Under the pieces are notes generated by a model. It did no database searches. It worked only from the letters and a program-made list of their open reading frames with translations, and was not told the DNA's origin. Of a stretch of DNA of 64,000 nt, positions 36,771 to 64,000 are shown in pieces. The translations under genes were made by a program, and so were the position numbers. The DNA comes from Candidatus Kaiserbacteria bacterium. GTDB taxonomy: Bacteria > Patescibacteriota > Minisyncoccia > Phycocordibacterales > UBA918. Positions within the stretch are counted from its first letter, which is position 1; every line of letters starts with the position of its first letter. The DNA is taken from NCBI GenBank assembly GCA_016699245.1, contig CP064968.1, positions 89,686 to 153,685 of the forward strand. The letters run 5' to 3'.

Positions 36771-37172
36771 CCCGTGCCAGTCTATTCGATATCAATTACC
36801 AGTGATGGAACAATACAGTATGGGTTTGTAGACCTGAGTGTAGCGAGTTCGACCGTTGGTGGGGATACACAGGCAGCAGAAAATACGGGAAGCCTTAATG
36901 AAAAAATAAATATTCGTTCAAGTAACGCTCTTGGCGGGACGAGCTGGCTTCTTGCATCAGTAATTGGAAGTAATCAGTATACTCATGAATTTTCGACAAC
37001 GACGGGAGTAACGTGGAAAACAATGCCCGATAGCAGTACATACGTGGTTGCAGATCCGTCTGTGACACCAAGTGGTACGGTAGATTTTGATTTTAGACTC
37101 ACGATGCCAAGCGGCACCACTGATTTTGTTGAAAAATCAATTACTATTACAGTCCAGGCCGTCGCCCCATAG
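34266..37172 (+). CDS. giant surface beta-propeller protein, part 2 (remainder of repeat unit 2 + unique C-terminal ~130-aa domain)
   Basis: Frame continuing copy 2 after the A-tract shift (ORF-track 34128..37172; the first ~45 residues of that ORF are out-of-frame read-through). Confidence 0.6.
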   Translation, partial: NELQGPQRLVHSTGIPFQWHLYNGYWSTGTTGGAAVDTPLTNFLNGADQMKFRYFSASSSVSEIAIDYLRVYAVVDPVYHAGGFVQESGGTPSGHYGNTFSVGHSVTAQFAVTTGDNIYLGVPGTVATTSNFYLTFKNVKTYTGMNTILVNAETLCSLATAGLQYRFKIRNFNTSIWEDISQPLDCSTNGFFNNFALNNIVIDDYINASNEIWVGVSALSNSTTQIRIDSIYLMLGTTNTDTNSCEISFGSNTAGRIASNPSAPGADRIQALTSDGTYMYASGYDSAGIDNEWRIEKRNLSDGDLVSAFGVGGATSTDPSVGADQIFAIATTSGAIFVAGYDTAAGTGQWRIEKRDSTDGTLETAFDTDGIITTNPSASLDHINAIATDASYLYVAGVENTTSGTWRIHKYDITTGALVTAFDGDGIATSTLAASGDERPQALKVDGDYLYIGGYDNLSGNIEWRLEKRNKTTGALCAGGGECAAGAFDTDGVVQTNPSAGVDTIRALAITDTHVFVAGYDSSTTNNQWRIEKRDIATGALETAFDTDGIMQYNPSTGADWITALALDDTTLYAIGNVSNGAWRVDARDITTGASTTFSGNGTTLSEDGGDDQPLAVVQEGGYLYVAGYGTAPGDNQWLIEKLATNTGLRSTDSFGANDCTGTRNIDITGGNRDAWTIQTQDESTNHSTPYYALDTDGDAAIEEAGSATIGFSVAVPGNSAVTGIYWAGRAMNGAGAGTVRLAVKDYSGFTGLTGGRSLVGSSPGIAMTYTDPLIVGGITSGGMAGYLTNPEDYIDTLNNEMSLSLVTNSDGASTTNAVNVWDFAMVSFSWVEPEPVPVYSISITSDGTIQYGFVDLSVASSTVGGDTQAAENTGSLNEKINIRSSNALGGTSWLLASVIGSNQYTHEFSTTTGVTWKTMPDSSTYVVADPSVTPSGTVDFDFRLTMPSGTTDFVEKSITITVQAVAP

Positions 37173-48957: not shown

Positions 48958-49050
48958 ACTGTGTAACAGGTGTACGTGCGGAGATGATTACATAGTATAC
49001 AAAAAACAACTATCGAATATGCTTCGATAGTTGTTTTTGATGTATGCGTA

Positions 49051-49482
49051 TTATACTTCTCCTCCTATGTTTGCTGAATCGTCAACACCTCTTTCAGTAC
49101 GACATTCCTTACGGTCTGTTTTGAATTCTGCCCACGCGCCCTTCTTTGCATTTTTCCAGGCTGTGCGCGCATCCTTTATATCTTTCTTGAAGGCTCCCCA
49201 CACTTCTTTGACTGAGGATTTAATATTTTTGCTATTTTCTTGCGAATACGCATCTTCGAGCCCCTCTCCGCGCTCTGTGTACGCTTTAAGGATTGAAGTG
49301 TTGTAAGTTGTTACTGCTGTCTTGAGTGTTGCTTCTCGAGTCTTTACCGTAGCCTTAAGACAAGAAACACTATTATTTGTGGTTGTACCAGGTACTCCAT
49401 CAACTTCCACTTGTGCTTGAGCCATAGGGGTAGCAACGAGCATAAATGCAACGATGCTGAAAGTAGTAATTAATTTTTGCAT
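49051..49482 (-). CDS. secreted Lys-rich hypothetical protein
   Basis: Signal peptide ending AQAQ; charged helical remainder; unknown family. Confidence 0.35.
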   Translation of the reverse strand: MQKLITTFSIVAFMLVATPMAQAQVEVDGVPGTTTNNSVSCLKATVKTREATLKTAVTTYNTSILKAYTERGEGLEDAYSQENSKNIKSSVKEVWGAFKKDIKDARTAWKNAKKGAWAEFKTDRKECRTERGVDDSANIGGEV

Positions 49483-49609
49483 AGATCTAAAATAGATGTG
49501 TTTGAAACTATTATTGATTAAAAGAGTATTGCACTGGTTAATTATATATTATATACATATAAAAATAATACTTTAATCCTCATTATGTGGATTATTGATA
49601 GTAACAATT

Positions 49610-50209
49610 CTAGTTATTATATAGCTTCCGTAGGCCGATAGCGTCTGCTTCGGGTAGGCGATGTTTCATACTGACGCGGAATTGGTAGAGGCCAAAACCA
49701 AGGAAGACAAATACAATAGCTTGCTTATATAGCACCCATTCATCGGCCGAGAGAAACATACGTACTAATTCATTCGAAACAGCAGAGAATACAAAAAAAA
49801 TAAACCACCGCCCTTCGAGTATGCGCCAGCCCTCCTCAGTAATAGCAAAGATATGACCAAAAAAAGTCTTGAAAAGAGACTTCTTCTGCCATAGGCTGAC
49901 GCCTAAAAACAGAGCAAAAAGTCCATAGTACACAGAATCTTTTATGATAAGTATCCAGGGGGCAGTGAATATGTACGTGAGCAGGGCAGTGAGGATAGTG
50001 ATAGAGCCAGAAAAAATCGCAAACCACGGTACTCGCTTGTTCACAAACTGTGAAAGCACAAGCGCTACGAGCGTTGCCGCACCGAGGGCTAGGGCTGCCT
50101 TAAGAAAATCAAAGAGATAATACGCAACAAAGAATACACCCACTGGGCCAAACTCAATCACAAACATATCAAATATGAGTATCTTCCAAATATGGCTATG
50201 TTTTTTCAT
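49610..50209 (-). CDS. inner-membrane protein, YciB/septation-protein-A-like
   Basis: 199 aa, 5 TM helices; N-terminal EFGPVGVFFVAYY resembles YciB (LDFLPLVVFFAFY). Assignment tentative. Confidence 0.4.
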   Translation of the reverse strand: MKKHSHIWKILIFDMFVIEFGPVGVFFVAYYLFDFLKAALALGAATLVALVLSQFVNKRVPWFAIFSGSITILTALLTYIFTAPWILIIKDSVYYGLFALFLGVSLWQKKSLFKTFFGHIFAITEEGWRILEGRWFIFFVFSAVSNELVRMFLSADEWVLYKQAIVFVFLGFGLYQFRVSMKHRLPEADAIGLRKLYNN

Positions 50210-50453
50210 TTTACATAGTATACAGGATTTGAATGAGAATCTTTGTACGAGGGTACATAAAATTTGATGGGGGAGTCTAAAAGATTTTGCTATTTATGAA
50301 TGACAAATAAATCATGCAAGAAAGAAATTATGGAAACGCACAGTGGTATACTACGACGATACAGAGCAGACGATTACATGCACAGGGTCGCGCATTGTCC
50401 GTATTAGAAAAAATATTTTCTTATTTTCATCTTAATCTATTTATACTCAATTT

Positions 50454-50744
50454 ATGATAACTCTCTATGTAAAAACAGGATGCCCATATTGCGCTCGAGT
50501 GCTTGGGGTACTTGATTCACAAAGTGTTCCGTATGAAATGAAGAATATTGCAGATGATGCTGTTATGAATGAACTCATTACCCTTGGAGGGAAACGACAA
50601 GTCCCGTTTCTCATTGATGAAGATGTGTCCCTATATGAATCACAGAATATTATCGACCATATTAATGCGAAGTATCAGGTAGTACAAGGCGAGGACTCTT
50701 CTCCAGATTCAGAAAAGAGCAGTGGTGTGTGTCCCATAGAGTAA
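50454..50744 (+). CDS. glutaredoxin
   Basis: CPYC active site at residues 10-13; thioredoxin-fold length with C-terminal extension. Confidence 0.7.
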   Translation: MITLYVKTGCPYCARVLGVLDSQSVPYEMKNIADDAVMNELITLGGKRQVPFLIDEDVSLYESQNIIDHINAKYQVVQGEDSSPDSEKSSGVCPIE

Positions 50745-50995
50745 TTATCTCGTGTAATTCCTAAAAGAATTCTAAAGATTATATTTGCGCAATGAGTAAC
50801 TGCGACACTTTATTTATTGTCCATACTAGTAATGATCTCAGACAATGGAGTTGCTCATGTCTTAATCAAATACGTTTGATTTTATATCTATTTTCGGATA
50901 AGGTATCTTTGGAGTCGATTCAGTTCGTAAAGCCAACAGCACGGCTTAATGTGCTCTTTTGAACATTGAAACAACCAAAACTGGAGGATTTTCTC

Positions 50996-51910
50996 ATGAT
51001 TACTCTCACAAATGGACATGCTTTCGAACACATGGTCGCAAGCGGATCTCTTGCCTTCGATGGCAGGGGCTGGCCTTGGGAACGACCATTCGTGTGGCTC
51101 GGTCTCATCAAACCCCAACTCTTCACTACCGTCATCAAGTCTCTGACGCGCAACCCGCGTCCTGGGAATTTGCGATGGTGGAAGCCATGGACGTGTGTCC
51201 GCCTGATTCCAGGCGGAGCGGTCAACAAGGTTGGGCTCACCAACCCTGGTGTCGAGTGGTGGTGCCGTGAAGTCGGTCCCACAATCGATTTCCAAAAGTT
51301 CCCGACTGCCGGATCTATCTTTGGCGAGGAGAAGGAACTGGTGGAAATGGCGGAGATGCTCAATTGCTTTGATCTTGTTGCGCTTAAAGTGAACGTCTCA
51401 TGTCCGAATAGCGGCCACGCAATCGAGCAAGCAGAGATGGTGGTGAATAGTGTGAAGGCGGTCAAACGCGCTTCGCGTCATCCCATCATCGTCAAACTCT
51501 CAGCCGATCAAGACTATCTCGCCATTGCGCGCGGACTTGTTGGTATCGCTGAAGCGATTGCTCTCAACAGCGTACCGTGGAAGACAGTCTTCACTAACGG
51601 TGAGCTGACTCCTTTGGCAAAGCTCGAGAAGCAAGTCGGTGGCGGAGGCGGAGGCGTCTCCGGCAAGCCTGCACAGAAACATAACTGGGTGGCAGTTGAA
51701 GCCCTTGCAAAACAAGGATTAATCCCCGTGATTGGTCCAAGTGTCATGGAATTCGAAGACATGGAAAAACTCCGGAAACTCGGCGCGAAAGCGATTAGTT
51801 TCGGAGCAATTCATCTGCGGACTCCGTGGAAACCAACCTCGTTCGTCAACAAAGAAATGAAGGAGAAAACTCATGAAAGAAACCTCGGTAACAATCCCTC
51901 GGTGGTTTGA
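50996..51910 (+). CDS. pyrD: dihydroorotate dehydrogenase family TIM-barrel protein (PyrD-like)
   Basis: NKVGLTNPG, LKVNVSCPN, PIIVKLS, GGGGGGVSG and IPVIGPSVM motifs parallel DHODH signature regions; GC content clearly above the window average. Confidence 0.55.
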   Translation: MITLTNGHAFEHMVASGSLAFDGRGWPWERPFVWLGLIKPQLFTTVIKSLTRNPRPGNLRWWKPWTCVRLIPGGAVNKVGLTNPGVEWWCREVGPTIDFQKFPTAGSIFGEEKELVEMAEMLNCFDLVALKVNVSCPNSGHAIEQAEMVVNSVKAVKRASRHPIIVKLSADQDYLAIARGLVGIAEAIALNSVPWKTVFTNGELTPLAKLEKQVGGGGGGVSGKPAQKHNWVAVEALAKQGLIPVIGPSVMEFEDMEKLRKLGAKAISFGAIHLRTPWKPTSFVNKEMKEKTHERNLGNNPSVV

Positions 51911-52958
51911 TCGCCACATTCACATCCGCGATAACGACATGATGGAAGCCGTTCTTCCGTCTACGCTCAGGCAGCGTGCGACGGGAGCGGTCATCATGCC
52001 TAACCTAGCAGATCCGATTTCCACGATCGAGAAAGCGAAAGCCTATCGTCACCGGATTAGTGAAGTGCGTGGAAATTACTTCATGAATCGCGTTCCTTTT
52101 ATCGGGAATGCAAAAGATCAATTCGAACCGTGTATGACGCTCTATCTAACGGATCACATCGATCCCGAGGAAGTTGTGCGTGGTTTCGAAGAAGGTGTCT
52201 GGCGTGCGGTAAAACTCTATATGGCCAATCAAAAAGGCCAAGGTGGAACTACCGGGTCTGCACACGGCGTGAAGAATCTTCTCGGCCGCTATAAGGTGTT
52301 CGAGGCAATGGAGAAACACAGGATTCCGCTCCTCGGGCACTTCGAAGCGGTCGAAGATGATGTTGATGAGTTTGATCGCGAAATCGTTTCTGCTGAGCGC
52401 GACCTCGAGCCCATTCTCAAGTCCTTCCCAGGACTGCCGGTGGTTTTCGAACATCTCACGGATGGACGCGCGGCTGACTTCGTAGCACAAGCAAGTCATG
52501 ACATTTATGCGACGGTGACTGCTCATCATCTGATGATTAATCGCAACGATATGTTCTCGGGTGGCATGAACCCAGGCAACTATTGCAAGCCTGTGCCGAA
52601 GCGCGAAGAACATCGCGTAAGGGTCCGGCAGTATGTGACATCGGGCAATCGCCGCTTTGGTGCAGGAACCGATTCAGCTCCGCATGATGAAAGTGTGAAG
52701 TCTCGTTGCTACGGCTGCGCGGCAGGCATCTTCACCGCACCGATAGCAGTCGAGCTCTACACAGGTATCTTCGACGAAGACAACGCCCTCCAACATCTCG
52801 GTCCGTTCATGTCCGAGAACTTTCTCGCGCTGTATGGCATGAAGGTGAGTTCGGAGACAATGACCATCAAACGAATGGCACATGTCGTTCCGCAGAAGAT
52901 CGGAGGCGTTCAGGTCTTCAAAGGAGGCTCCGAGATTCCGTGGAAACTCGTTGGTTGA
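51873..52958 (+). CDS. pyrC: dihydroorotase, class II (E. coli PyrC type)
   Basis: DRHIHIRD (cf. DDWHLHLRDG), AVIMPNL, LYLTD, PLLGH, VVFEHLT, HHLM.NRN, GTDSAPH and CYGCAAG all align with E. coli PyrC; overlaps pyrD-like stop by 38 nt. Confidence 0.85.
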   Translation: MKETSVTIPRWFDRHIHIRDNDMMEAVLPSTLRQRATGAVIMPNLADPISTIEKAKAYRHRISEVRGNYFMNRVPFIGNAKDQFEPCMTLYLTDHIDPEEVVRGFEEGVWRAVKLYMANQKGQGGTTGSAHGVKNLLGRYKVFEAMEKHRIPLLGHFEAVEDDVDEFDREIVSAERDLEPILKSFPGLPVVFEHLTDGRAADFVAQASHDIYATVTAHHLMINRNDMFSGGMNPGNYCKPVPKREEHRVRVRQYVTSGNRRFGAGTDSAPHDESVKSRCYGCAAGIFTAPIAVELYTGIFDEDNALQHLGPFMSENFLALYGMKVSSETMTIKRMAHVVPQKIGGVQVFKGGSEIPWKLVG

Positions 52959-53206
52959 ATCAAAAGCGAGAACGTTAACCCAACCCTGACACTTAATTGT
53001 TGTCAGGGTTGTTTTTTATTAACTGCTACTTCCGAGATACATTATTCCAGAGTAGTTCAAACAGTGATTGCCTAAATTCAATAAGTACGCGTGTTTTGAC
53101 AAACTGTTAAAAAGTAAGTTTATTGTGTTATTCTTGCTAATTATTATCTATTTTATAATAACTATGTATACTATTAATATAGTTTAGGTAGTAATTATAT
53201 TAATTT

Positions 53207-54649
53207 ATGAATAATTTATATAAATCAGAACTCAAGAACTTTTTAGAGTTAAGTTACGCAGAACTTGAAGCGCTCAATCTAAAAGCAAAAGAGGATGCAG
53301 AGAAGCTTTCGCCCGAGGTACTCCAAAAGCAGTACACAGAATACCTCACGAAAGAGAAGCGTATCAAGGCAGTCACTATATGTTTTAGTGACGTTGAAGG
53401 AAGACTCCATATGCTTGACTATGATAAGAACTTTCTTTTGAGTTCACTTTCAAATCTCACCTTCGATGGTTCATCAATCAGAGGATTCACACAACAACAT
53501 GAATCAGACTTGCGTATTGAAGTAGATTGGGCAAGTATTAGATTTTTCCCCGCAGATGTATTCGGACCTGGAAAGGTCATTTTTTTTGCCACCGTACTCA
53601 ATCGTGACCGAACTCCGTATGTAAATGATTTCAGAGGGAGACTCAAAGAGTACACAACGGAGATAAAAAAGAAGCAGGGTCTCACTGCGTATTCTGCAGG
53701 TGAGATTGAGGGATTCCTTGTCGACGGGGTGGAAGCTGAGCAACACTTTACCTCACGAGAGGGATTTAAACTGGTGAGCTCAGGTGGATATTTCCACTCG
53801 CTTCCCATGGACAAACTCCGCATCTTTATTGATCAGTGTGCTGAAGCACAACGAGCGATGGGATTCCAAAATGAGAAGGATCACCCCGAAGTAGCACCGT
53901 CGCAGTTTGAAATGAATTTCTCATATGCGGAAGTGATGCGTGCTGCTGACAATGTGCAACTCTATAAACTCATTTGCAGACAAGTTGCTCGAAACCTCGG
54001 TATGACGGCAACATTTCTGCCCAAGCCCTTTACCGGTATCAATGGCTCCGGCATGCATACGAATTTTTCACTCAAAAAAAATGGGAAGAACATTTTCCAT
54101 GAAGCAAAGGGTCAAGATGGTCTTTCAAAAATTGCATGGGAGTTTATTTCACGATTGCTCAATCACGCACCGGAGATATGTCTTATCTTCAATCCATCAG
54201 TCAATAGTTATAGACGTCTTGACCCGCATTTTGAAGCGCCCAATCAAATTAAAGTGTCGGCACTCGACAGAGGTTCAATGATTCGTATTCCTGTAGGAAA
54301 TGAAAAAACAGCTCGTATTGAAGTGCGCTCAGTAGCACCGGATGCAAATCCATACCTCGTTCTCTTTACGATTCTCAAAATTGGGCTTGAGGGAGAATCA
54401 CTCAAGAAGGATGAAAATAAACGTGACCGACTTCGCTTCTTGCCCGACAATATCAACGATGCGATTGCTCTTTTTAAGTCGAGTAAGTTCATTGGCAAAA
54501 TATTAGGTGAGGAAAGTAAAGAGCGCATCGCGTTATTCAAGCAAATTGCAGCCGATAGATCGCCGAAGGCACTCGGAAGCTACATTAAGGCATCCGAGGT
54601 GCTCTATCACCATGAGGTGACCAACCAGTTCCTTTGGACAAAATTCTAA
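53207..54649 (+). CDS. glnA: glutamine synthetase
   Basis: KPFTGINGSGMHTNFS, NSYRRL and RIP signature regions; 480 aa; preceded by a very AT-rich ~170-bp region. Confidence 0.8.
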   Translation: MNNLYKSELKNFLELSYAELEALNLKAKEDAEKLSPEVLQKQYTEYLTKEKRIKAVTICFSDVEGRLHMLDYDKNFLLSSLSNLTFDGSSIRGFTQQHESDLRIEVDWASIRFFPADVFGPGKVIFFATVLNRDRTPYVNDFRGRLKEYTTEIKKKQGLTAYSAGEIEGFLVDGVEAEQHFTSREGFKLVSSGGYFHSLPMDKLRIFIDQCAEAQRAMGFQNEKDHPEVAPSQFEMNFSYAEVMRAADNVQLYKLICRQVARNLGMTATFLPKPFTGINGSGMHTNFSLKKNGKNIFHEAKGQDGLSKIAWEFISRLLNHAPEICLIFNPSVNSYRRLDPHFEAPNQIKVSALDRGSMIRIPVGNEKTARIEVRSVAPDANPYLVLFTILKIGLEGESLKKDENKRDRLRFLPDNINDAIALFKSSKFIGKILGEESKERIALFKQIAADRSPKALGSYIKASEVLYHHEVTNQFLWTKF

Positions 54650-54752
54650 GCGTCTCGGACTCACCCCTATGGATACATTTTGAGGTGTGCATAAAGAAAT
54701 GTGATATAGGGGTGAGTCTTAGAAAGACCATTTTATTAGTCACAAAAGTAAT

Positions 54753-56090
54753 ATGAACTCATTAAAAAAATATTCACTCTGGCTACTTATTCTCGGGGGC
54801 TTTGTAAGTCTCCTTGCAATGGGGTATGCCGGAAGTTCTGCGGGCGATTTTGATCCTGCAAGTATTAATTCGGGGGATACCGCGTGGATGCTCATGGCTA
54901 CTGCGCTCGTGATGCTTATGACACCTGCTGTCGGTTTCTTTTATGGTGGCATGGTATCTGCAAAGAACGTGGTGAGTGTCCTTAAACAATCGTTTATTAT
55001 TCTTGCACTTGTGAGTATTCAATGGGTGATTGTAGGGTACAGTCTTGTGTTTGGTACAGATATTAAAGGAATTATTGGTGGCATGGATTACTTCGCACTT
55101 CAGGGTGTCGGGTATGCCCCGAATGCTGATTACGCAGCGACAATTCCACACCTTATGTTCATGATGTTCCAAGGAATGTTTGCCATTATTACACCTGCAC
55201 TCATTATTGGTGCGTTTGTAGGGCGTATGAAGTTTAAAGCACTTGTCGCCTTTACTTTACTTTGGACCACACTCGTCTATGACCCGATTGCACACTGGGT
55301 GTGGGGGATTGGAGGATGGCTCAGAGACTCGGGAGCGCTCGACTTTGCAGGAGGTACTGTCGTACACATGAGTGCAGGTTTTTCTGCACTTGCAGCAGCA
55401 CTCCTCATTGGTAAGCGTATTACCTCAGGACATCCATCCTCAAATGCAAACAACGTGCCGTTTGTTATTCTCGGTGCTGTATTGCTGTGGTTTGGGTGGT
55501 TTGGCTTTAATGCGGGTTCTGCACTTGGTGCAGGAGCACTTGCGTCGGGAGTATTTGTTGTAACGAATATTGCAGCAGCGGCGTCAGCCCTTGCGTGGGT
55601 CATTCTCTCATATGCGGAAAATGGAAAGCCTTCTGCGATGGCAGCGGCTATTGGTGCAGTCTGTGGACTCGTTTCGATTACTCCTGCATCAGGCTACGTT
55701 GGTCCTGTATCAGCAATTGCTATTGGACTCATCGGGGGAGTCGTCACCTATCTCGCGGTGTACTGGCGCATGCATAAGTCGAGTATTGATGACAGTCTCG
55801 ATGTGTGGGCAGCACATGGTATGGGAGGACTCGTGGGAGCAATACTCACGGGAGTTTTTGCTGAGAAAGCCGTGAACTCATTTGGGAACGACGGATTACT
55901 CTTTGGAAATGCAGGACTCGTATGGACACAAATTGTTGCTGTACTATGTACCGCACTCTATGCGTTCGTCGCGACCTACATCATTCTCAAAGTGCTCTCG
56001 ATGTTTACACCACTCCGTGTAACCTCAAAGCAAGAGGAAGAGGGACTCGACATAGCGAGCCACGGTGAAATGGGCTACCGTCTCCAATAA
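54753..56090 (+). CDS. amt: ammonium transporter (Amt/MEP family)
   Basis: 445 aa, 11 TM; DFAGGTVVHMSAGF signature and conserved twin-His region. Confidence 0.85.
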   Translation: MNSLKKYSLWLLILGGFVSLLAMGYAGSSAGDFDPASINSGDTAWMLMATALVMLMTPAVGFFYGGMVSAKNVVSVLKQSFIILALVSIQWVIVGYSLVFGTDIKGIIGGMDYFALQGVGYAPNADYAATIPHLMFMMFQGMFAIITPALIIGAFVGRMKFKALVAFTLLWTTLVYDPIAHWVWGIGGWLRDSGALDFAGGTVVHMSAGFSALAAALLIGKRITSGHPSSNANNVPFVILGAVLLWFGWFGFNAGSALGAGALASGVFVVTNIAAAASALAWVILSYAENGKPSAMAAAIGAVCGLVSITPASGYVGPVSAIAIGLIGGVVTYLAVYWRMHKSSIDDSLDVWAAHGMGGLVGAILTGVFAEKAVNSFGNDGLLFGNAGLVWTQIVAVLCTALYAFVATYIILKVLSMFTPLRVTSKQEEEGLDIASHGEMGYRLQ

Positions 56091-57567: not shown

Positions 57568-59086
57568 TTATGGGTGTACGAGGCATCTGCCGGTCATTAC
57601 TGCCGGCTGTGGAAGATTCATTAAGTGAAGGATAGTGGGCGCCACATCAGCGAGTGTCCCGTTTTCAATTTTTTCTTCATGGGAGGTCACAATAACGGGG
57701 ACGTGGTTGGTGGTGTGTGCGGTATGCATTTCACCCGTCTCATGGTTGATATTTTCTTCTGCATTGCCATGATCTGCGGTAATGAGCACAACCCCATCGT
57801 GTGAAAGTGCCGCCTCCACCACACGCTTCAATTGCGTATCCACTTCTGTAAGTGCAATGTGGAGCGCTTCTGTATTGCCGGTGTGTCCCACCATGTCGGC
57901 ATTAGCGAAATTGATAAAAATGAAGTCAGTTCCTTTCTCTATGGATTCGAGCGCCTTATCAGCAATTTCTTTTGCACGCATTTTTGGCGCGAGGTCATGC
58001 GTGAGTACGTCTTTGCGACTCGGTACGAGAATGTGCTCCTCACCAGGGTAGGGAAGTTCATGGCAGCAATTGAGAAAGAATGTTGCATGCGCATACTTTT
58101 CTGTTTCGGCAATGTGTGCCTGTGAAAGTCCGGCATCAGAAACTTCTTTTGCGAGCGTTGTCGTAATTTCTATTGGAGGGAATGCAACATGCGCAGGAAT
58201 TCCTTTCTCGTACTCGGTAAGTGTCACAAAACACAAATCCTTCTTCTCTGCATGCGTCACAATTTTACTCGAGAGCATGCGCGCTCGATCAGAGCGGAAA
58301 TTAAAAAAAGAAAATTCCATCATGATCCATCACCGTGTACTGGTGCCCCTCTTCATCAAGGAAAACGGTGGGTTTCACATGCTCATCAAAGACACCCTCT
58401 GCATACAACTTCTCCATTATCTCAGATGGTCTGCATGTATGCTCAGTGTTATCACATCGTCCATGGAAAATTGCATCCTCAACACGCTCGAGCCTGTCCC
58501 AGTTGTTGTCTCTATCCATTGCATAGAAACGTCCGGCGGTGGTGGCAATAAATCCGATGCCTAAATCATCGATGACGTCCTCAAGTTCCTTGAGATACTG
58601 TGCTGCACTTCGTGGCCCTGTGTCGCGTCCGTCGGTAAATGCGTGAATGGCTATTTTTGTTACACCCGCCTCTTTTGCCGCCTTCATAAAAGCGTACAGA
58701 TGGCTACTGTGACTATGGATTCCTCCCGGGGAGAGGAGCCCTTTGATATGCAACACCGAATCGTGCTTTTTTACATGGTCAAATAGTTTTATAAAAGCAG
58801 GATTCGTCGCAAACTCATTATTTTTTACCGCCTTTGATATGCGGAGTAAGTCGGTATCAATAATTTTACCTGCACCGATGGTCATGTGTCCCACTTCACT
58901 ATTTCCCATCTGGCCAGAGGGAAGACCGACACTCTCCGAACTTGCTTCAAGAAGCGCATGAGGATAGGTATTCCACAAGGAATCAAAAAATGGTGTCGGC
59001 GCTTCTGCTATGGCATTATCGCGCGTCTCTTCGCGATGCCCCCATCCATCGAGAACAATGAGAACCGTTGGTTTTTTATCGTGCAT
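57568..59086 (-). CDS. gpmI: 2,3-bisphosphoglycerate-independent phosphoglycerate mutase, split by a -1/+1 frameshift at a T7/A7 tract near 58294-58325
   Basis: N-terminal half (58301..59086: VLDGWGH, catalytic Ser region) and C-terminal half (57568..58323: FNFRSDRAR...DHGN) together equal a full ~510-aa iPGM; junction ...IFF|FNFR falls in a homopolymer run. Confidence 0.8.
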
Positions 59087-59150
59087 ATCAATATTTTAAA
59101 TAAGTTCCAAGTATACTACATAATTTGTGTGTATCTATAGATATGTATAT
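58950..59150. repeat. copy A of a ~190-bp diverged direct repeat (gpmI 5' end + upstream region)
   Basis: Roughly 80-85% identical to 60740-60900. Confidence 0.6.
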
Positions 59151-59206
59151 GTTAAAAAAAGATAGAAAGTTGTGTCCTGTTGCTCTTGAGGTCAGACATC
59201 AAAAAC

Positions 59207-60673
59207 CTATAGCGAGAGTCTATATTGTGTATAATTTAAGAAATCATTGATACTTACTAAATTACCTTGACAACTGGAACAAGAGTAAATATGAATATCT
59301 TTTGGGATAGTTCCACCATGTATGTCGAATAGTGGTACCAGGCAGTGAGGACACATATAAGGTTGCTGCGTATTGCTCCGTTGTGTACCAGAGTCTAGAT
59401 ATTTTACAAAATAATCCTTGGTGTCAATACTCGATAGTGAATAGAATGAACCTTTATCAAACCAGATGTTAATACATACACCACATACCCAGGCCTTTCT
59501 CTGTATGTCGTGTGGCCCTAATGCATCAATCTGTGTAAGTGTATGGCCGCACACGCTGCAGGCTAATAATTTTATTGGGCTATACGACTCGGTAACTGTA
59601 GGGTCAAAACTTTTTATTAGTCGTAACCTTTCTTCAATGAGTTGTTCTTCGAAAGATTGATCTTTTTCTGACGTACTTGCTAAAAAGAAAGGTGAGTAGT
59701 AGGCAAATTCCTGATATGTCTCATCTTGTACAATCATTAATACTTTGTTCAATGCAGAATAGAGTGCTTGTGGATGACGAGTAAGTTCAAGTGCTTTAAG
59801 GTCTGCATAAATTGCCTCACCATAATTCATGGTGTAGTAAATGAATCCCGTGATCAGTACGATAATCAAATGAATCGGGTTCATCACTAAAAAGACTAAA
59901 CCAGCCCCAATAGTGTTGTTTAATGATTTATGCTCATCTAAAAATATCCCGACGACAATTGCGACATACATTCCAAGCCATATGAGTGGTAAAAACGGGT
60001 GTATGGTTCCAAGGAGAAGTAAGAATGAGAGTAGCCCAACAACTTTAGTTATAGTAATTAACCATTCAACAGTCCTTCTCGTTGATATCTCATCGGAAAG
60101 ATAGTGGCCAATTTCATGTGCAATGTATGCTTCTGCTTCACTCACACTAAAATATTGAAGTAAACTCGTACTGACATGTAGTTGTGGGGCACCAATAGTC
60201 CTTAGGTGTAAGAAGAGTTTTGGCATATTTCCTGCATACATAATCAGTTGTGGCGTTTCGATGCCTGCCGTTTTTGATAAGTTTTCTAGAATTTTTTGTA
60301 TCGTAACTCTGTCGACGTGTTTTGTGTGATCAGTATGTGTTCCGTTTTGGACAATGAATTCTTGAGCAAAATATGCAACAACAAGAAGTATTATGCTAAA
60401 CCACACGTCATTATAAATATACGTGTCGTGCAGGTACGTCGTATGTACAAAGAGTTGATATGCCAGATACGATATGCCAAGTATCAGGAATATAAGTGCC
60501 AGAATAATATATGCGCGTTTTCTTTTTACACGATCAACAACCGTCCAATAGGTCTCATTCTTTTTATTAGAAAAAATTGTCTGACTGAATAGTTTTCCCA
60601 AATACCTCGCAATTACATCATTTTTGAATGCTAGGGGAAAGACAATTATGATATATATAAAAACAGATGACAT
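59207..60673 (-). CDS. membrane M48-family zinc metallopeptidase (HtpX-like) with C-terminal double Zn-ribbon
   Basis: AHEIGHYL (HExxH) with flanking TM helices; C-terminal CSVCGH...CGVC and CPHC...CSSC pairs. Confidence 0.65.
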   Translation of the reverse strand: MSSVFIYIIIVFPLAFKNDVIARYLGKLFSQTIFSNKKNETYWTVVDRVKRKRAYIILALIFLILGISYLAYQLFVHTTYLHDTYIYNDVWFSIILLVVAYFAQEFIVQNGTHTDHTKHVDRVTIQKILENLSKTAGIETPQLIMYAGNMPKLFLHLRTIGAPQLHVSTSLLQYFSVSEAEAYIAHEIGHYLSDEISTRRTVEWLITITKVVGLLSFLLLLGTIHPFLPLIWLGMYVAIVVGIFLDEHKSLNNTIGAGLVFLVMNPIHLIIVLITGFIYYTMNYGEAIYADLKALELTRHPQALYSALNKVLMIVQDETYQEFAYYSPFFLASTSEKDQSFEEQLIEERLRLIKSFDPTVTESYSPIKLLACSVCGHTLTQIDALGPHDIQRKAWVCGVCINIWFDKGSFYSLSSIDTKDYFVKYLDSGTQRSNTQQPYMCPHCLVPLFDIHGGTIPKDIHIYSCSSCQGNLVSINDFLNYTQYRLSL

Positions 60674-60750
60674 ACACTTTATTATACTTCACTGTATATG
60701 TTAGAAGTGTATATTATCCTTGTTCTCAAGGTCCGACTCCGGGAATCGTA

Positions 60751-60852
60751 TCAAAAAAGTGCAAGAGTTTCCGCAATGGCACTATCGAGAGTTTCCTCGC
60801 GATGCTCCCACTCGTCGAGAACAATAAAAATCGTTGGTTTTTTATCGTGCAT
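60751..60852 (-). pseudogene. duplicated 5' fragment of gpmI (33 codons: MHDKKPTIFIVLDEWEHREETLDSAIAETLALF*)
   Basis: Copy B of the direct repeat; cf. authentic [33 protein letters not shown]. Confidence 0.55.
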
Positions 60853-61017
60853 ATCAATGTGTTACATAAGTCCCAAGTATACTACATAATCAACATGCAT
60901 ATAAAAATGTATGTATGCAAAGAAAGAGTAAGGGACTGTAATTTGCTCACCGTATGAGGTGTGATTTTTATTTATTTCCTGAACGCGGACTGGTGTATAA
61001 TGAAAAACCGTTCGCAA

Positions 61018-61467
61018 TTATCTAACCATAATTGTATTTTCATCTGATGGGGCATTTGAATTAAGGGTTCCTTTGAAGACCTCAATACTACTCACAGACA
61101 AAGAACCTTCCCCTTGGTGTTCCCAGAAAACAATACTTTCATCTGCATTAGCATACCGAGCACCACTAGCAGAGATGGCTTGAGGCAAAGTTATTGTTCC
61201 GGTTTTTGGGTGTGTAAAAGTAACTGTATTATGTGAATTGTTAAAATTGACAGCGAGAGACTCTTGTCCAGAATGATATATGACAGAAACAATAGACGAC
61301 TCATCCTGTTCTTGTGTGTTTATTTCACGTTCATATTTATTCCAGCCATCAGTCGTCATAAAGAAAGGAAGGTAATTATTGAGTGAACCGTTTTTCCATA
61401 CGACAGCAAAAAATACAAATAGGATAATAGCAATAATAATATAAATATTTTTTTGAGTTGTTTGCAT
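61018..61467 (-). CDS. membrane-anchored MliC/PliC-like lysozyme inhibitor
   Basis: N-terminal TM; ISASGARYANADESIVFWEHQGEGSL resembles the MliC SxSGAxY...W.KG.E block. Confidence 0.45.
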   Translation of the reverse strand: MQTTQKNIYIIIAIILFVFFAVVWKNGSLNNYLPFFMTTDGWNKYEREINTQEQDESSIVSVIYHSGQESLAVNFNNSHNTVTFTHPKTGTITLPQAISASGARYANADESIVFWEHQGEGSLSVSSIEVFKGTLNSNAPSDENTIMVR

Positions 61468-61832
61468 ATCTCATACGATACCACAAGTTCGAACTTACTA
61501 CATGAAAAGTGAAAAGGAGAGTGAAAAGAAAAGTAAAAAAGTATCAAGGTTTTGAAAATCTCTGGCAGGGAAGGATTGATAAAAGTTACCGTTTCTACTT
61601 TCACGTAGTTGAACCTTATTACATTATTGTTTCAGCCATTATTCATTCCAAGTGATGTACTCTTATTGGTGTCTATTAAGTGAGACACGGATTAGGAGGG
61701 GTTTTTTCAAGGTTCCCGAGGACCGACCTCGGGAAACTTTTAATAAGCTCCGTCGACAGGAGGATTCTTCCATTACATGGACTGTTTAGGTCGTATGACA
61801 ATTTAAGTTCCCTAGGGCTCCCCTGGGAACAA

Positions 61833-61866
61833 AGAAAATCGCCTGACCAAGGTCAGGCGATTTTGG
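61833..61866. terminator. bidirectional rho-independent terminator
   Basis: aatcgcctgacc-aa-ggtcaggcgatt perfect 12-bp stem with flanking T-runs on both strands. Confidence 0.55.
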
Positions 61867-61886
61867 TGGATTGTGGGTAGGGAAAA

Positions 61887-62177
61887 TCAACTGAGAAGTG
61901 TACCAACGGCGACAAGGAAGTTGCCCACTGTGCCGGTCCCAAAAAGGAAGCCGAGTAGAGTGCAAACAGCAACCGCAGGCCATAAGATATAAAAACCCAA
62001 ACGGTGATCATGCCAGCGATGGCCAAACCCCCAATGTCCCACAGCCTCGGAAACGATAACAATCCCAAGTGCTCCAAAAAGAACAATCATCCATGCGGTT
62101 ACGAGTATGGGAGAAAATATACCCAACCCAAGACCGACGATAAAACCAACAAAATACAGAAACAGTAACTCTAACAT
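61887..62177 (-). CDS. small hypothetical membrane protein (His-rich C-terminal half)
   Basis: 96 aa, 3 TM helices; a truncated paralog lies at 63367..63570. Confidence 0.4.
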   Translation of the reverse strand: MLELLFLYFVGFIVGLGLGIFSPILVTAWMIVLFGALGIVIVSEAVGHWGFGHRWHDHRLGFYILWPAVAVCTLLGFLFGTGTVGNFLVAVGTLLS

Positions 62178-62260
62178 CAGGATTCTCCTTTAAATAACAC
62201 GAAAGCAAAGCAGATTCTATCACTCGTATTGACTACTGTATAGAGACACTCTTTCCTTTG
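62031..62260. repeat. copy A of a ~225-bp direct repeat (~93% identical) flanking the fic gene
   Basis: Matches 63424-63650; covers the 5' half and upstream region of the small membrane-protein gene. Confidence 0.8.
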
Positions 62261-62448
62261 CATACTGTTTCTAAAATATTATCATTTAGAAACTGCCTAT
62301 GGATTTTCTGATGTATGTATATCACTATGCTACTCGTCTCTCATAGTAAATATTAGTGAATAAGTGTCTATTTTAACTACCTATTCACTAAACTTTGACA
62401 ATAAGGTGTGAAAACACTATAATATTAAAGGTTAATTAACTAAACATT

Positions 62449-63342
62449 ATGGCTATCACCAAACCAATCATAACGAGACTCCAAAATCTCAAGATTGCCT
62501 TTGAGACTCTCAAAAAAGGCAAAGAATCACTCTTGGTACTAGTAGATGAGGCTGAAGTGGCTGAGGCAGTCTACAACTCTAATGCTATCGAAAACTCGAC
62601 ACTCACACTCAAAGAGACAGAGAAGATTCTTTTGGAAATGGCTGTGGCTCGAGAGGTATCTGTTCGAGAAGTTTTTGAAGCAAAGAATCTCGCTCGAGTA
62701 GTTGCGTACATTAGGAACAAATCGCAAGAGCTCGAAATAAATAAAGAAGTAATTCTTTTTCTCCATCAGATGCTTATTAGTGGTATCAACGATGAGATTG
62801 CAGGCCGTTTTCGAAAGACAGGTGAATACGTTCGGGTTGGTACACATGTCGCTCCCGCACCAGAACATGTTGAAAGAATGATTGACTCATTACTTTCCGA
62901 ATATACAGGTAATCTCTCAAACTTTTTTTTGGATAAAATTGCAAAATTTCACCTCGAGTTTGAGACGATTCATCCGTTCTGTGATGGTAATGGTCGTATT
63001 GGTCGTGTCCTTATAAACTATCAATTACAAAGACTTGGGTTTCCAGGTATTATTATTCGTGATAAAGAAAAGAAAGAGTATTACAGCACCTTTACTGAAT
63101 ATCGAGACAAAAAGACAGCGAAGAAAATGGAAAAGATACTCGCTCTTGCTCTCACGGAATCACTCCATAAAAGAATCACGTATCTTAAGGGTGATAAAAT
63201 TGTGACTCTTTCTGATTATGCAAAAACTAGTCATGCATCAGCATCTGCAATCTCTAATGCTGCGCGCCGACAAAACATTCCTGCCTTCAGAGAGAAAGGT
63301 GTTTGGAAAATTGCGGAAGGATTTGTTTATAATCCAAGTTAG
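62449..63342 (+). CDS. fic: Fic/Doc family protein (AMPylase-like) with C-terminal wHTH
   Basis: HPFCDGNGRIGR matches the Fic motif HPFx(D/E)GNGRxxR. Confidence 0.8.
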   Translation: MAITKPIITRLQNLKIAFETLKKGKESLLVLVDEAEVAEAVYNSNAIENSTLTLKETEKILLEMAVAREVSVREVFEAKNLARVVAYIRNKSQELEINKEVILFLHQMLISGINDEIAGRFRKTGEYVRVGTHVAPAPEHVERMIDSLLSEYTGNLSNFFLDKIAKFHLEFETIHPFCDGNGRIGRVLINYQLQRLGFPGIIIRDKEKKEYYSTFTEYRDKKTAKKMEKILALALTESLHKRITYLKGDKIVTLSDYAKTSHASASAISNAARRQNIPAFREKGVWKIAEGFVYNPS

Positions 63343-63366
63343 AAAATTCAATATACTCTCATTCGT

Positions 63367-63570
63367 CTATGAGTACTCAGCGGTACACACCAACATTCGT
63401 GAATAGAGATACTTCAATCGAACCCAATGTCCCACAGCCTCGGAAACGATAGCAATCCCAAGTCCCCCAAAAAGAACAATCATCCATGCAGGTACGAGTA
63501 TGGGAGAAAATATACCCAACACAAGACCAACGATAAAACCAACAAGATACAGAAACAGTAATTCTAACAT
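63367..63570 (-). CDS. truncated/diverged duplicate of the small membrane protein gene
   Basis: The first 48 residues are nearly identical to the 61887..62177 product; the C-terminus differs. Confidence 0.35.
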   Translation of the reverse strand: MLELLFLYLVGFIVGLVLGIFSPILVPAWMIVLFGGLGIAIVSEAVGHWVRLKYLYSRMLVCTAEYS

Positions 63571-63650
63571 CAGGATTCTCCTTTAAATAACAAGAAATCA
63601 AAGCAGATTCTATCACTCGTATTGACTACTGTATAGAGAACTCACGGAAA
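63424..63650. repeat. copy B of the ~225-bp direct repeat flanking fic
   Basis: See copy A. Confidence 0.8.
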
Positions 63651-63770
63651 AATTTTTCTCACTCAACAATCCCGAGGAAAGACTGTACATTTTTGGATGT
63701 AAGTACCTATTGAGTATAAAAAGAAACCGCCCAACTAAAGCCAGACGGCTTCGGTAGGGTGGTTGGTTAG

Positions 63771-63995
63771 TCAGTACTGATGAGATTTTGCAGCTTTATG
63801 CTCGTCAATTACCAAACGTCTAGATGCTAGTTTCTTCACACCAAGTTTACTCAGGAGTTCGAGACTTTCGATCCGGATGTCTTGCAGGCGGATGGGAAAG
63901 CATTCGGTTGGCGTCTTGTCGACTATCTCGAGAAAGAGTCGTTTTGCTAACCGCTTCTTTCTCATCTTAAGCGCTAATAAGCCAAATCGATACAA
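63771..63995 (-). CDS. hypothetical protein (possibly truncated at window edge)
   Basis: 74-aa basic ORF; no family recognised. Confidence 0.15.
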   Translation of the reverse strand: MYRFGLLALKMRKKRLAKRLFLEIVDKTPTECFPIRLQDIRIESLELLSKLGVKKLASRRLVIDEHKAAKSHQY

Positions 63996-64000
63996 ACCTT

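Follow-up and report, generated by a model that had tools for sequence, protein, structure and literature searches.

The window, a 64-kb stretch of DNA from a Candidatus Kaiserbacteria genome, carries on its forward strand two consecutive genes, A and B, whose coding sequences overlap by 38 nt. An earlier note on this DNA had read them as a TIM-barrel gene of the dihydroorotate dehydrogenase (DHODH) family followed by an overlapping dihydroorotase (DHOase) gene, that is, as two steps of pyrimidine synthesis in an organism with a reduced genome. The gene content agrees with this reading, given that a DHODH-like and a DHOase gene are found side by side, and a protein identical to the gene B product (P0001, 100%) is encoded on a 1,054,716-bp contig of Candidatus Kaiserbacteria.

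Gene B (51873..52958, forward strand, 361 aa) starts at the ATG at 51873, with the sequence AAGGAG just before it, and encodes a class II (homodimeric, E. coli-type) dihydroorotase, PyrC. This assignment, already made in the earlier note, is sustained by a score of 308.1 bits against the TIGR00856 model (pyrC_dimer), above its curated cut-off of 292.95, and by the presence of the motifs DRHIHIRD and CYGCAAG in the translation. Comparison with solved proteobacterial enzymes yielded 266 bits for that of Burkholderia (4lfy) and 249 bits for that of E. coli (1j79). In the alignment with 4lfy, the segments DRHIHIRD, MPNL, VKLY, GGTTGSAHGV, LLGHFE, VFEHLT, and GTDSAPH all match up, and the ligands of the binuclear metal center (HxH, Lys, His, His, Asp) as well as the Asn and the Thr-Thr of the substrate loop are aligned. 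The Lys of the metal center is carboxylated in E. coli PyrC. Thus, gene B matches the E. coli type over its full length, with all the zinc ligands and loop residues aligned, but it differs from it by an insertion of five residues in the flexible substrate loop (MANQKGQGGTTGS), by an extra segment past residue 60, by a start that overlaps the upstream gene, and by its membership of a Patescibacteria-specific clade, 66–82% identical among the matches listed. The enzyme is predicted to cyclize N-carbamoyl-L-aspartate to dihydroorotate.

Gene A (50996..51910, forward strand, 304 aa) was assigned to a divergent class 1-like DHODH on the basis of the domain PF01180, its fold, and its context. Its reading frame extends from the ATG at 50996 to a stop at 51910; the TTG at 50966, listed by the ORF tool, is an unlikely start because it lies inside the conserved leader RNA described below. 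The product scored 62.8 bits against PF01180 (DHO_dh), above the gathering score of 27, but remained far below the curated cut-offs for PyrD (85 of 269 bits for PRK07259, 72 of 270 for TIGR01037, and 68 of 330 for the archaeal PyrD). Judged by these scores, gene A represents a distinct DHODH subfamily, whose members form 164 clusters at 50% identity (E ≤ 1e-30) and are mostly labeled 'hypothetical protein' at NCBI. The closest solved sequence is the DHODB PyrD of L. lactis (53.6 bits), with an identity of ~23% in the fold comparison. The AF2 model (pLDDT 79.2, pTM 0.82) has the DHODH TIM-barrel fold, and in the Foldseek ranking against the PDB the leading structures were DHODB 1ep3/1ep1 (TM 0.70–0.72), class 1A DHODHs, and DPD.

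The alignment of gene A with 1ep1 paired NVSCPN with NISCPN, VKLS with VKLS, and NKVGLTNPG with NAIGLQNPG, and no variation was seen among 38 homologues at K48, N77, N133, C136, K167, and N191 (A4, A7). The protein therefore resembles the class 1 DHODHs (1ep1, DHODA 1dor, and the trypanosomatid enzymes) in its TIM-barrel fold (TM 0.70–0.72), in the catalytic Cys within S-C-P-N, in the Asn and Lys residues of the orotate/FMN site, which bind orotate and contact FMN, respectively, and in its location in a pyr operon context. In contrast, its identity to these enzymes is only ~20–25%, it carries a poly-Gly insert (VGGGGGGVSGKPAQ), and its FMN-phosphate loops are IGPS (IGP-SV) and FGAI instead of GxGG and GTA. 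Unlike the class 1B enzyme, a PyrD–PyrK heterotetramer, gene A has no adjacent PyrK, which was not found among its recurrent neighbors in 105 related loci, and it lacks a quinone-binding N-terminal domain. Its product would oxidize dihydroorotate to orotate by means of FMN and the catalytic Cys. How the electrons are disposed of is a biochemical question posed by this uncharacterized subfamily, most of it unnamed by NCBI; Patescibacteria are not known to have respiratory quinones.

The noncoding sequences around both genes contain several expression signals on the same strand. A promoter-like site (TTGATT, 17 nt, TAAGGT; 50876..50904) was recognized by its conserved position and by the consensus TTGATTTTATGTCAATTTTnnGnTAAGGT in alignment A1. 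Its score did not reach the cut-off of the consensus scan, so that its putative role as a promoter is proposed from conservation and from reading of the sequence. The Shine-Dalgarno sequence of gene A, GGAGG (50983..50987), was likewise identified by reading and is kept in A1. Downstream of gene B, folding revealed an intrinsic terminator (52981..53017) formed by a 12-bp stem with one bulged base followed by U6. This terminator was missed by the promoter/terminator pattern scan and was confirmed by folding (−18.8 kcal/mol, z = −4.4); the hairpin is kept across loci with compensatory changes (alignment A2).

Between the promoter-like site and gene A there is a structured 5′ leader RNA of ~70 nt (50908..50976, forward strand). 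The covariance model R1 detected it with 74.7 bits (E = 4e-14), and this was the sole match in the window. In 940 kb of related loci, the same model produced 43 matches with E < 0.01, all 43 of them on the coding strand; those that could be placed end ~2–90 nt ahead of the start of A, of an OPRT-like gene, or of PyrF, whereas two were not placed (the second match in L075, for the next gene, and that of L099, for the start). The leader comprises a P1 hairpin (50914–50928), weak or degenerate in this copy but intact in those of L001 and L003, an H-type pseudoknot with stems S1 (50930–50934 with 50943–50947) and S2 (50938–50942 with 50951–50955), and a conserved single-stranded tail, UGAACAUUGAAA (50960–50971).

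This hairpin and pseudoknot model was derived by hand and then tested on the alignments A6 and A5. In A6, 93.8% of the cells pair and compensatory changes occur in 12 of the 16 pairs; the covariation score was 0.395, compared with 0.198 for shuffles and 0.03–0.05 for slid controls, and none of 500 shuffles reached the observed value. Stem S1, which had been left out of the search model, was still 89% paired, and the picture obtained with A5, an alignment made with MAFFT only, agrees with that of A6. The MFE folding z-scores of whole leaders were not significant, and the MFE folds revealed no consistent expression platform; the evidence for the structure comes from covariation, not from thermodynamics. 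A different fold, obtained with RNAalifold from a small MAFFT alignment, did not covary and was discarded in favor of the hairpin and pseudoknot. Pairing of the tail with the loop and the 3′ strand of P1, considered as a possible switch, showed no covariation and was rejected because its pairing (70%) was not above that of the shuffles.

A search of Rfam 15 returned no match at E ≤ 1 covering the leader, either in the 49000–55000 segment of the window or in 10 related loci, so that it corresponds to no Rfam family, including the PyrR binding site (RF00515); its sequence is presumably also unlike the consensus of the PyrR loop. The closest known systems are the small riboswitches built on an H-type pseudoknot (preQ1-I/II, SAM-II/V, guanidine-III) and the pyr leader regulators (PyrR, RF00515, and the E. 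coli pyrC and pyrD hairpins); the points of resemblance are a compact pseudoknot (stems of 5 bp and 5 bp, loops of 3–4 nt) in a 5′ UTR and its repetition before several operons of one pathway. In the leaders of OPRT-like genes and PyrF, the conserved 3′ tail directly adjoins the ribosome-binding site; no terminator was found between the leader motif and the Shine-Dalgarno sequence, and no pairing with the latter was identified. From these features, we propose that the leader is an uncatalogued candidate cis-regulatory RNA for pyrimidine genes, with a presumed regulatory role. That it constitutes a new class of riboswitch, sensing a metabolite of the pyrimidine pathway (uracil/UMP, orotate, or PRPP) and traveling with a spreading cassette, is a tentative proposal that we regard as rather doubtful. 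For pyrimidine bases or nucleotide end-products, no dedicated natural riboswitch is known to have been established, and the regulatory RNAs of Patescibacteria are, as far as is known, essentially unexplored; our literature search retrieved no description of genes A and B or of such an RNA in this group. The leader is a small and concrete candidate, amenable to testing, for regulation by RNA in Patescibacteria; it could also become a tool, since no inducible expression systems are available for these bacteria.

The genes that accompany A in other genomes bear on the metabolic direction of the pair. Across 105 loci, its only recurrent partners were DHOase, OPRT-like, PyrF, and PyrB genes; the order A-B-OPRT-like-PyrF is found in five loci (L006, L026, L032, L035, and L045) and A-B-PyrB in L014. 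The PyrF and PyrB proteins of the related loci exceed their curated cut-offs; for PyrB (ATCase), the query was an E. coli PyrB sequence, and the matches were then verified with NCBIfam. Homologues of OPRT, PyrF, and PyrB are absent from the window, and a PyrF homologue search gave no match from the 1,054,716-bp Kaiserbacteria contig among the best 120. This absence, together with the GlnA and Amt genes located directly downstream, would be compatible with the reverse, catabolic route, in which orotate is converted to dihydroorotate, carbamoyl-aspartate, and finally aspartate, NH3, and CO2, the ammonia feeding the neighboring glutamine synthetase and ammonium transporter; both reactions are reversible in principle, according to established enzymology. 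However, the GlnA/Amt neighborhood occurs in this genome alone among the loci compared, all the recurrent partners in the 105 loci are biosynthetic, and no ureidosuccinase-like gene recurs, all of which makes the catabolic route quite unlikely. Because in other genomes the genes continue into OPRT-like, PyrF, or PyrB, we consider that the pair serves biosynthesis. Patescibacteria generally lack nucleotide synthesis and depend on their hosts or on scavenged DNA (PMC11665869).

The composition of the region sets it apart from its surroundings. The GC content of 50966–52958 is 0.524, compared with 0.440 for the window minus its two GC-rich islands, so the values estimated by eye in the earlier note (52–56% versus 40–45%) were accurate. 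None of 496 equally long background windows comes up to this value (maximum 0.483, z = 3.1). Both borders are sharp: in steps of 100 bp, the GC content rises from 0.32 to 0.40 and 0.54 on the left (50800–51099) and drops from 0.49 to 0.35 and 0.18 on the right (52900–53199). The GC3 values of genes A and B are 0.559 and 0.561, while those of the 39 other ORFs measured in the window range from 0.31 to 0.54. The tetranucleotide profile of 50862–53030 correlates with the background at 0.255 (median window, 0.794), and only one other island in the window, at ~30.8–37.2 kb, is equally deviant. Sliding GC and tetranucleotide analyses thus revealed a composition that is deviant, not uniform, and the block is foreign-looking in GC, GC3, and tetranucleotide usage alike.

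The sharp compositional edges and the fact that the genome is a MAG could suggest an assembly artifact, either a chimeric join, the alternative raised in the earlier note, or a contaminant fragment inserted into the contig. A chimera would have a single junction, not a 2.2-kb insert between matching flanks, and a join is unlikely because the left and right flanks agree in tetranucleotide composition (r = 0.73). Moreover, the cassette has intact regulatory ends and recurs in many independent assemblies at 67–86% nucleotide identity, never identical, embedded in contigs of considerable length (among them ones of 129 kb, 245 kb, and 441 kb) that differ in their flanks. In view of these data, an artifact is very improbable.

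The extent of the shared unit was defined by blastn against other Patescibacteria genomes. Matches between the window and 25 loci showed 67–86% identity, starting at 50862–50996 and ending at 52958–53030; the full extent of nucleotide homology (50862..53030, forward strand) includes the noncoding leader and the terminator, and the flanks beyond it showed no homology to the 25 loci. In these 25 loci the A→B pair is kept and the flanking genes are not syntenic, and across the 105 related loci the same cassette appears in unrelated gene neighborhoods. The 120 best homologues listed for each protein are 66–100% identical (A, 67–89%; B, 66–82%), and every named match among them (about one quarter in the case of PyrC) belongs to a Patescibacteria group, those named being Kaiser-, Taylor-, Staskawicz-, and Vogelbacteria and Paceibacterota.

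This distribution modifies the proposal of horizontal acquisition made in the earlier note: lateral transfer is upheld, and the proteobacterial source that it implied is not. One could suspect that the genes came directly and recently from a proteobacterium or from some other donor outside the CPR, given that class II PyrC is known from Proteobacteria and that the GC content of the island (~52%) is like that of many proteobacterial genomes. Nevertheless, the named matches among the 120 best listed per protein are all from Patescibacteria, the solved proteobacterial PyrC enzymes score only 249–266 bits, none of the solved structures is closely related to A, and CPR-type contigs carry a continuous range of family members that have equilibrated with their hosts; such a donor is therefore hardly credible. 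The term 'class II' or 'E. coli-type' is a family label and does not denote origin. Genes A and B do group with the superphylum of the host; on the scale of the host genome, however, their inheritance is not vertical.

Codon usage and synonymous sites allowed us to evaluate vertical inheritance with a GC-richness kept fixed in every host by selection, be it on codon usage, on the level of expression, or on amino acid content. Both proteins are very conserved, and some distant members whose composition tracks that of the host are somewhat GC-richer than it (0.41 versus 0.20 in L071, 0.37 versus 0.24 in L063), as would be expected under such selection. However, the same proteins are encoded with a low GC3 in L014 (0.27–0.30), L040 (0.31–0.34), and L035 (0.38–0.41), indicating that a high GC3 is not required, and other conserved window genes, those for enolase, aldolase, and HisRS, have GC3 values of 0.41–0.47. 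Close relatives keep a GC3 of ~0.55–0.60 irrespective of their host. In the 23 loci in which A is at least 70% identical to that of the window, its GC3 is 0.53 ± 0.09 and correlates poorly with that of the host, which varies from 0.23 to 0.62 (r = 0.30); in contrast, in 28 loci with a more distant A, the GC3 of the gene follows that of the host (r = 0.83).

Identity at four-fold sites between the window and L001–L006 was 0.64–0.73 for A and 0.57–0.70 for B, compared with 0.31 ± 0.04 predicted from codon bias alone. In the same genome pairs, the T2SS ATPase and PhoH, with amino acid identities of 0.59 and 0.66, showed a four-fold identity of 0.23 in both cases, and genes c8 and c9 of the L002/L007 pair, with amino acid identities of 0.87–0.89, showed four-fold identities of 0.32–0.41; the flanking housekeeping genes of these pairs are synonymously saturated. 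These results, together with the lack of synteny, make vertical inheritance unlikely, and the cassette is young relative to its hosts. The pyr gene family as such is old and widespread in Patescibacteria, and it is the exchange of a single GC-rich lineage of the cassette among them that is recent.

Considering the distribution of the homologues, the non-synteny, the host-independent GC3, and the high four-fold identity, we conclude that 50862–53030 is probably a self-contained pyr expression cassette that was recently exchanged among distant Patescibacteria. It would comprise the promoter-like site, the structured leader of ~70 nt, genes A and B, and the intrinsic terminator. According to this model, a GC-rich lineage (GC ~52–55%) would have been swapped recently among distantly related Paceibacteria-type genomes, and the copy analyzed here would not yet have drifted toward the 44% GC of its Kaiserbacteria host. 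A compact, self-regulated pyrimidine module, extended elsewhere to steps 2–6, may thus circulate among ultrasmall bacteria; if the module is passed around, auxotrophy in Patescibacteria would be patchy and dynamic.

The cassette resembles genomic islands in its atypical GC, GC3, and tetranucleotide usage, its sharp borders, and the discordance between the history of its genes and that of the host, but it differs from them by the absence of an integrase, a tRNA target, flanking repeats, and a phage or plasmid backbone; here, nothing more than an expression cassette of ~2.2 kb would have been transferred. No tRNA was detected within the window, and no recombinase is encoded by the four genes upstream, by the two downstream, or by the ORFs of at least 150 aa elsewhere in the window. 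An att-like repeat of 17 nt (50885–50901 and 53145–53161, 82% match) lies in AT-rich DNA and was judged to be due to chance. Viral contigs scanned with protein A, protein B, and the leader DNA pattern gave no match, and the analysis revealed no donor and no empty site. With all these marks of mobility missing from the cassette, the mechanism of transfer can only be inferred; the most likely route would be natural transformation and subsequent recombination. Patescibacteria have documented competence machinery and are documented to undergo natural transformation (PMC11665869), and gene flow inside the radiation with no mobile-element signature is consistent with natural competence.

In some genomes, the incoming copy may have replaced a resident allele. 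In the L002/L007 pair, in which the context is syntenic, A is 88% identical (four-fold identity, 0.66), in contrast to the adjacent DHOase (47% and 0.32). This contrast fits the replacement of A alone, which appears to have occurred in this pair. Relatives of A at 61% identity are also present on contigs with 67–70% GC (L058 and L069).

The GC content of the block at 50966-52958, which the earlier note had described as a compositionally distinct two-gene island, was 52.4%, compared with 44.0% in the window minus two GC-rich islands (45.1% for the whole window). None of 496 background windows of equal length reached this value (maximum 48.3%, z = 3.1), and both edges were abrupt, successive 100-bp GC values rising through 0.32, 0.40 and 0.54 at the left edge and falling through 0.49, 0.35 and 0.18 at the right. 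The surplus sits in synonymous positions; GC at third codon positions (GC3) was 0.56 in both genes and 0.31-0.54 in the 39 other measured ORFs. Tetranucleotide usage at 50862-53030 was also deviant, showing a correlation with the background of 0.255 (median window, 0.794), so the earlier description is correct. The two flanks correlated with each other (0.73), and this resemblance already disfavours a simple chimeric contig join, the alternative that had been proposed. Long antisense ORFs (155-375 aa) cross both genes (50920-51465 and 52146-52613, minus strand) and recur in L001, L010 and other loci with relatives of the island; they misled a length-based gene caller and are probably a by-product of GC-rich codon usage.

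Nucleotide homology to the related loci spans 50862-53030, past both coding ends. It includes a conserved promoter-like sequence upstream of the first gene, TTGATT-17-TAAGGT (50876-50904), which is inferred and falls under the scan threshold, and a conserved intrinsic terminator downstream of the second (52981-53017; -18.8 kcal/mol, z = -4.4). The second gene (gene B, 51873-52958, plus strand) encodes a class II dihydroorotase of 361 aa, which is a new member of a known enzyme family. It scored 308.1 bits against TIGR00856, the homodimeric class II model (curated cut-off 292.95), and its alignments with the enzymes of Burkholderia (266 bits) and E. coli (249 bits) were full-length. It retains the HxH motif, the Asn, the lysine of VKLY, the Thr-Thr loop, two His and the aspartate of GTDSAPH, and has five extra residues in the flexible loop. 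Its ATG is preceded by AAGGAG, and its start overlaps the end of the upstream TIM-barrel gene by 38 nt, the overlap itself having been reported in the earlier note; overlapping tblastn matches imply a similar overlap in some relatives.

The upstream gene (gene A, ATG at 50996, 50996-51910, plus strand) encodes a PF01180 protein of 304 aa (62.8 bits) that lies well under every curated PyrD cut-off (85 vs 269 bits) and whose relatives are mostly named 'hypothetical protein' at NCBI. Of the solved proteins, the one closest in sequence is the PyrD subunit of L. lactis DHODB (53.6 bits). The best fold matches of its AlphaFold model (pLDDT 79, pTM 0.82) were DHODB and class 1A DHODHs (TM 0.70-0.72), with dihydropyrimidine dehydrogenase ranking behind. 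Across the family there is no variation in the catalytic Cys of class 1 (NVSCPN) or in the Lys and Asn of the orotate/FMN site; the FMN-phosphate loops depart from the canonical form. The protein is a divergent variant of a known enzyme family, in a distinct subfamily of 164 clusters (50% identity, E <= 1e-30) among 1.8 billion representatives. Two contigs of 67-70% GC (L058, JAABUU010000505.1; L069, JAABUY010000519.1) carry relatives at 61% identity adjoining an OPRT-like gene and an ATCase gene, without the leader RNA found upstream of gene A; the subfamily may extend beyond Patescibacteria.

We examined the neighbourhoods of gene A in 105 loci, 25 from species-representative genomes and 80 from metagenomes. 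The A-B pair is kept while the neighbouring genes differ in nearly every genome, and the only recurrent neighbours were pyrimidine genes: a class II dihydroorotase of the B type or of an alternative type, B2 (23-63% identical), OPRT-like phosphoribosyltransferases, and PyrF (TIGR01740, 99.4 bits; cut-off 92.3). ATCase was found near gene A in L014 (TIGR00670, 272.5 bits; cut-off 237) and in the two high-GC contigs. The orders A-B-OPRT-PyrF (L006, L026, L032, L035 and L045) and A-B-PyrB (L014) put gene A at the DHODH position of the de novo UMP pathway, and since PyrK is not a recurrent neighbour in the 105 loci, A is not a 1B-type heterotetramer. B2 scored 223 bits against TIGR00856, under the cut-off, and replaces the PyrC type after gene A in L002 (10655-11743), L007, L022 and about 20 metagenome loci; therefore, the cassette is modular, its genes having separate histories. 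Genes A and B are the only pyrimidine genes of the window: no OPRT, PyrF or ATCase homologues were found within its 64 kb, and none of the best 120 matches listed in a PyrF search came from its contig. The context of the downstream GlnA/Amt genes is not conserved in the related loci.

The best 120 matches listed for each protein were 66-100% identical, and the organism names, carried by a minority of them, belonged to Patescibacteria groups only (Kaiser-, Taylor-, Staskawicz- and Vogelbacteria, Paceibacterota); a protein 100% identical to B lies on a 1,054,716-bp Candidatus Kaiserbacteria contig. In close relatives, the island had a GC content of 0.51-0.55 and the host flanks 0.33-0.54 (in L005, 0.525 vs 0.333). 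Among A genes with 70% identity or more to that of the window (n = 23), GC3 was 0.53 +/- 0.09, independent of host GC3 (0.23-0.62; r = 0.30), whereas in more distant ones (n = 28) GC3 followed that of the host (r = 0.83). This pattern indicates an old, usually equilibrated family in which one GC-rich lineage remains un-ameliorated in many hosts; since low-GC3 versions of the same proteins exist (L014, L040, L035), high GC3 is not functionally required. Four-fold degenerate sites of A were 64-73%, and those of B 57-70%, identical between the window and L001-L006, with values of up to 81% between these loci themselves, compared with 0.31 +/- 0.04 expected from codon bias alone (permutation within codon families). 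Non-cassette genes of the same genome pairs were saturated at these sites: four-fold identity was 0.23 for the T2SS ATPase and T2SS F between the window and L005 (amino-acid identity 0.59 and 0.40) and for PhoH between the window and L013 (0.66). L002 and L007 share flanking synteny, and two proteins 87-89% identical between them had four-fold identities of 0.32-0.41, compared with 0.66 for A; their dihydroorotase genes are only 47% identical, which fits replacement of the A allele alone.

We concluded that distantly related Patescibacteria exchanged the cassette long after their genomes had diverged (d4 ~0.3-0.6). With this block a reduced genome laterally acquired two pyrimidine steps, and a chimera is rejected; that part of the earlier reading stood, but the Proteobacteria source that it implied did not, the donor pool being other Patescibacteria and the unit a complete expression cassette. 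Classical mobility hallmarks are absent from the island; the cassette was accompanied by neither a tRNA or recombinase nor a flanking repeat or viral copy. The likely route is DNA uptake followed by recombination, made plausible by the competence and natural transformation described for this group (PMC11665869). Two copies of a 17-nt direct repeat, TATCTATTTTCGGATAA / TATCTATTTTATAATAA (82% identical), occur within the promoter region of the cassette (50885-50901) and upstream of glnA (53145-53161); the match is probably chance in AT-rich DNA or promoter similarity.

A conserved leader RNA occupies 50908-50976 (plus strand), the sole covariance-model match in the window. It comprises a hairpin, P1, which is degenerate in this copy, a compact H-type pseudoknot (stems S1, AAGCC/GGCUU, and S2, AGCAC/GUGCU) and an invariant single-stranded UGAACAUUGAAA. 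Second copies, within longer cassettes, precede the OPRT-like/PyrF operon in L004 (2769-2838), L010 (12077-12146), L026 (4711-4781), L032 (2451-2520) and L035 (8058-8128), and others lie before OPRT-like or PyrF genes in L045 (8040-8110) and L015 (6023-6109). Compensatory changes occur in both pseudoknot stems of these copies (in the first five, AAGGC/GCCUU and GUGCU/AGCAU), and their conserved tail, UUGAAAGGA, abuts the ribosome-binding site. The model, built from 14 sequences with P1 and S2 only, gave 43 matches (E < 0.01) in 940 kb, all 43 on the coding strand; where the gene downstream could be placed, it was A, an OPRT-like gene or PyrF, with the match a short way before it. In the alignment of these matches, pairing is kept in 93.8% of cells, and double changes are seen at 12 of 16 pairs. 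Covariation scored 0.395, compared with 0.198 +/- 0.011 for shuffles (0/500 reached 0.395) and 0.03-0.05 for slid partners. S1, left out of the model, was nevertheless 89% paired, with CG->UA in 13 sequences and CG->GC in 4, and a MAFFT-only alignment gave the same outcome. In our view the leader is a genuine structured cis-acting RNA and a candidate riboswitch or protein-binding leader, in which no expression platform was identified. It is so far uncatalogued: the Rfam 15 covariance search returned no family match and no literature on it was found. As leads, this RNA and the orphan DHODH subfamily offer the most promise. A variant leader before the DHODH-like gene in L006 (7890-7954), L011 (2207-2234) and L026 (2633-2678) retains the SD and the tail UGAACAUUGAAA, with the pseudoknot region swapped for a different AT-rich sequence that includes TAGTCT(A/C)A; this variant could be either a second type of leader or a decayed form. 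In the low-GC, ameliorated cassette of L014, the leader motif and the start codon are 89 nt apart (9912-10000); this spacer contains the direct repeat ACTACGGCGTACTAAG twice, plus hairpins, and resembles sequence inserted in the leader.

Elsewhere in the window, a second GC-rich (52%), tetranucleotide-deviant island at 30863-37172 contains two large ORFs (1135 and 1014 aa) without a Pfam match. They are built from tandem copies of close to 100% identity, repeating every ~2878-2880 bp (e.g. 31031-31330 = 33911-34210; 31382-31681 = 34260-34559), with internal repeats mostly 168-171 nt apart that code for a W-R-I-E-K-R-D-like motif; the island could represent a repeat protein that was duplicated recently or a duplication introduced in assembly. 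The cofactor-independent phosphoglycerate mutase (57568-59086, minus strand) is split into two overlapping ORFs, 58301-59086 and 57568-58323, matching positions 1-253 and 251-504 of TIGR01307, which suggests a frameshift, whether through a pseudogene, a sequencing error or a programmed event. The low-GC stretch at 59000-64000 (37-40%) includes a Fic / 'mobile mystery protein B'-like gene (62449-63342) that matches L001 (13007-13819) at 68% nucleotide identity; amino-acid identity is 0.63 and four-fold identity 0.46, somewhat over saturation.
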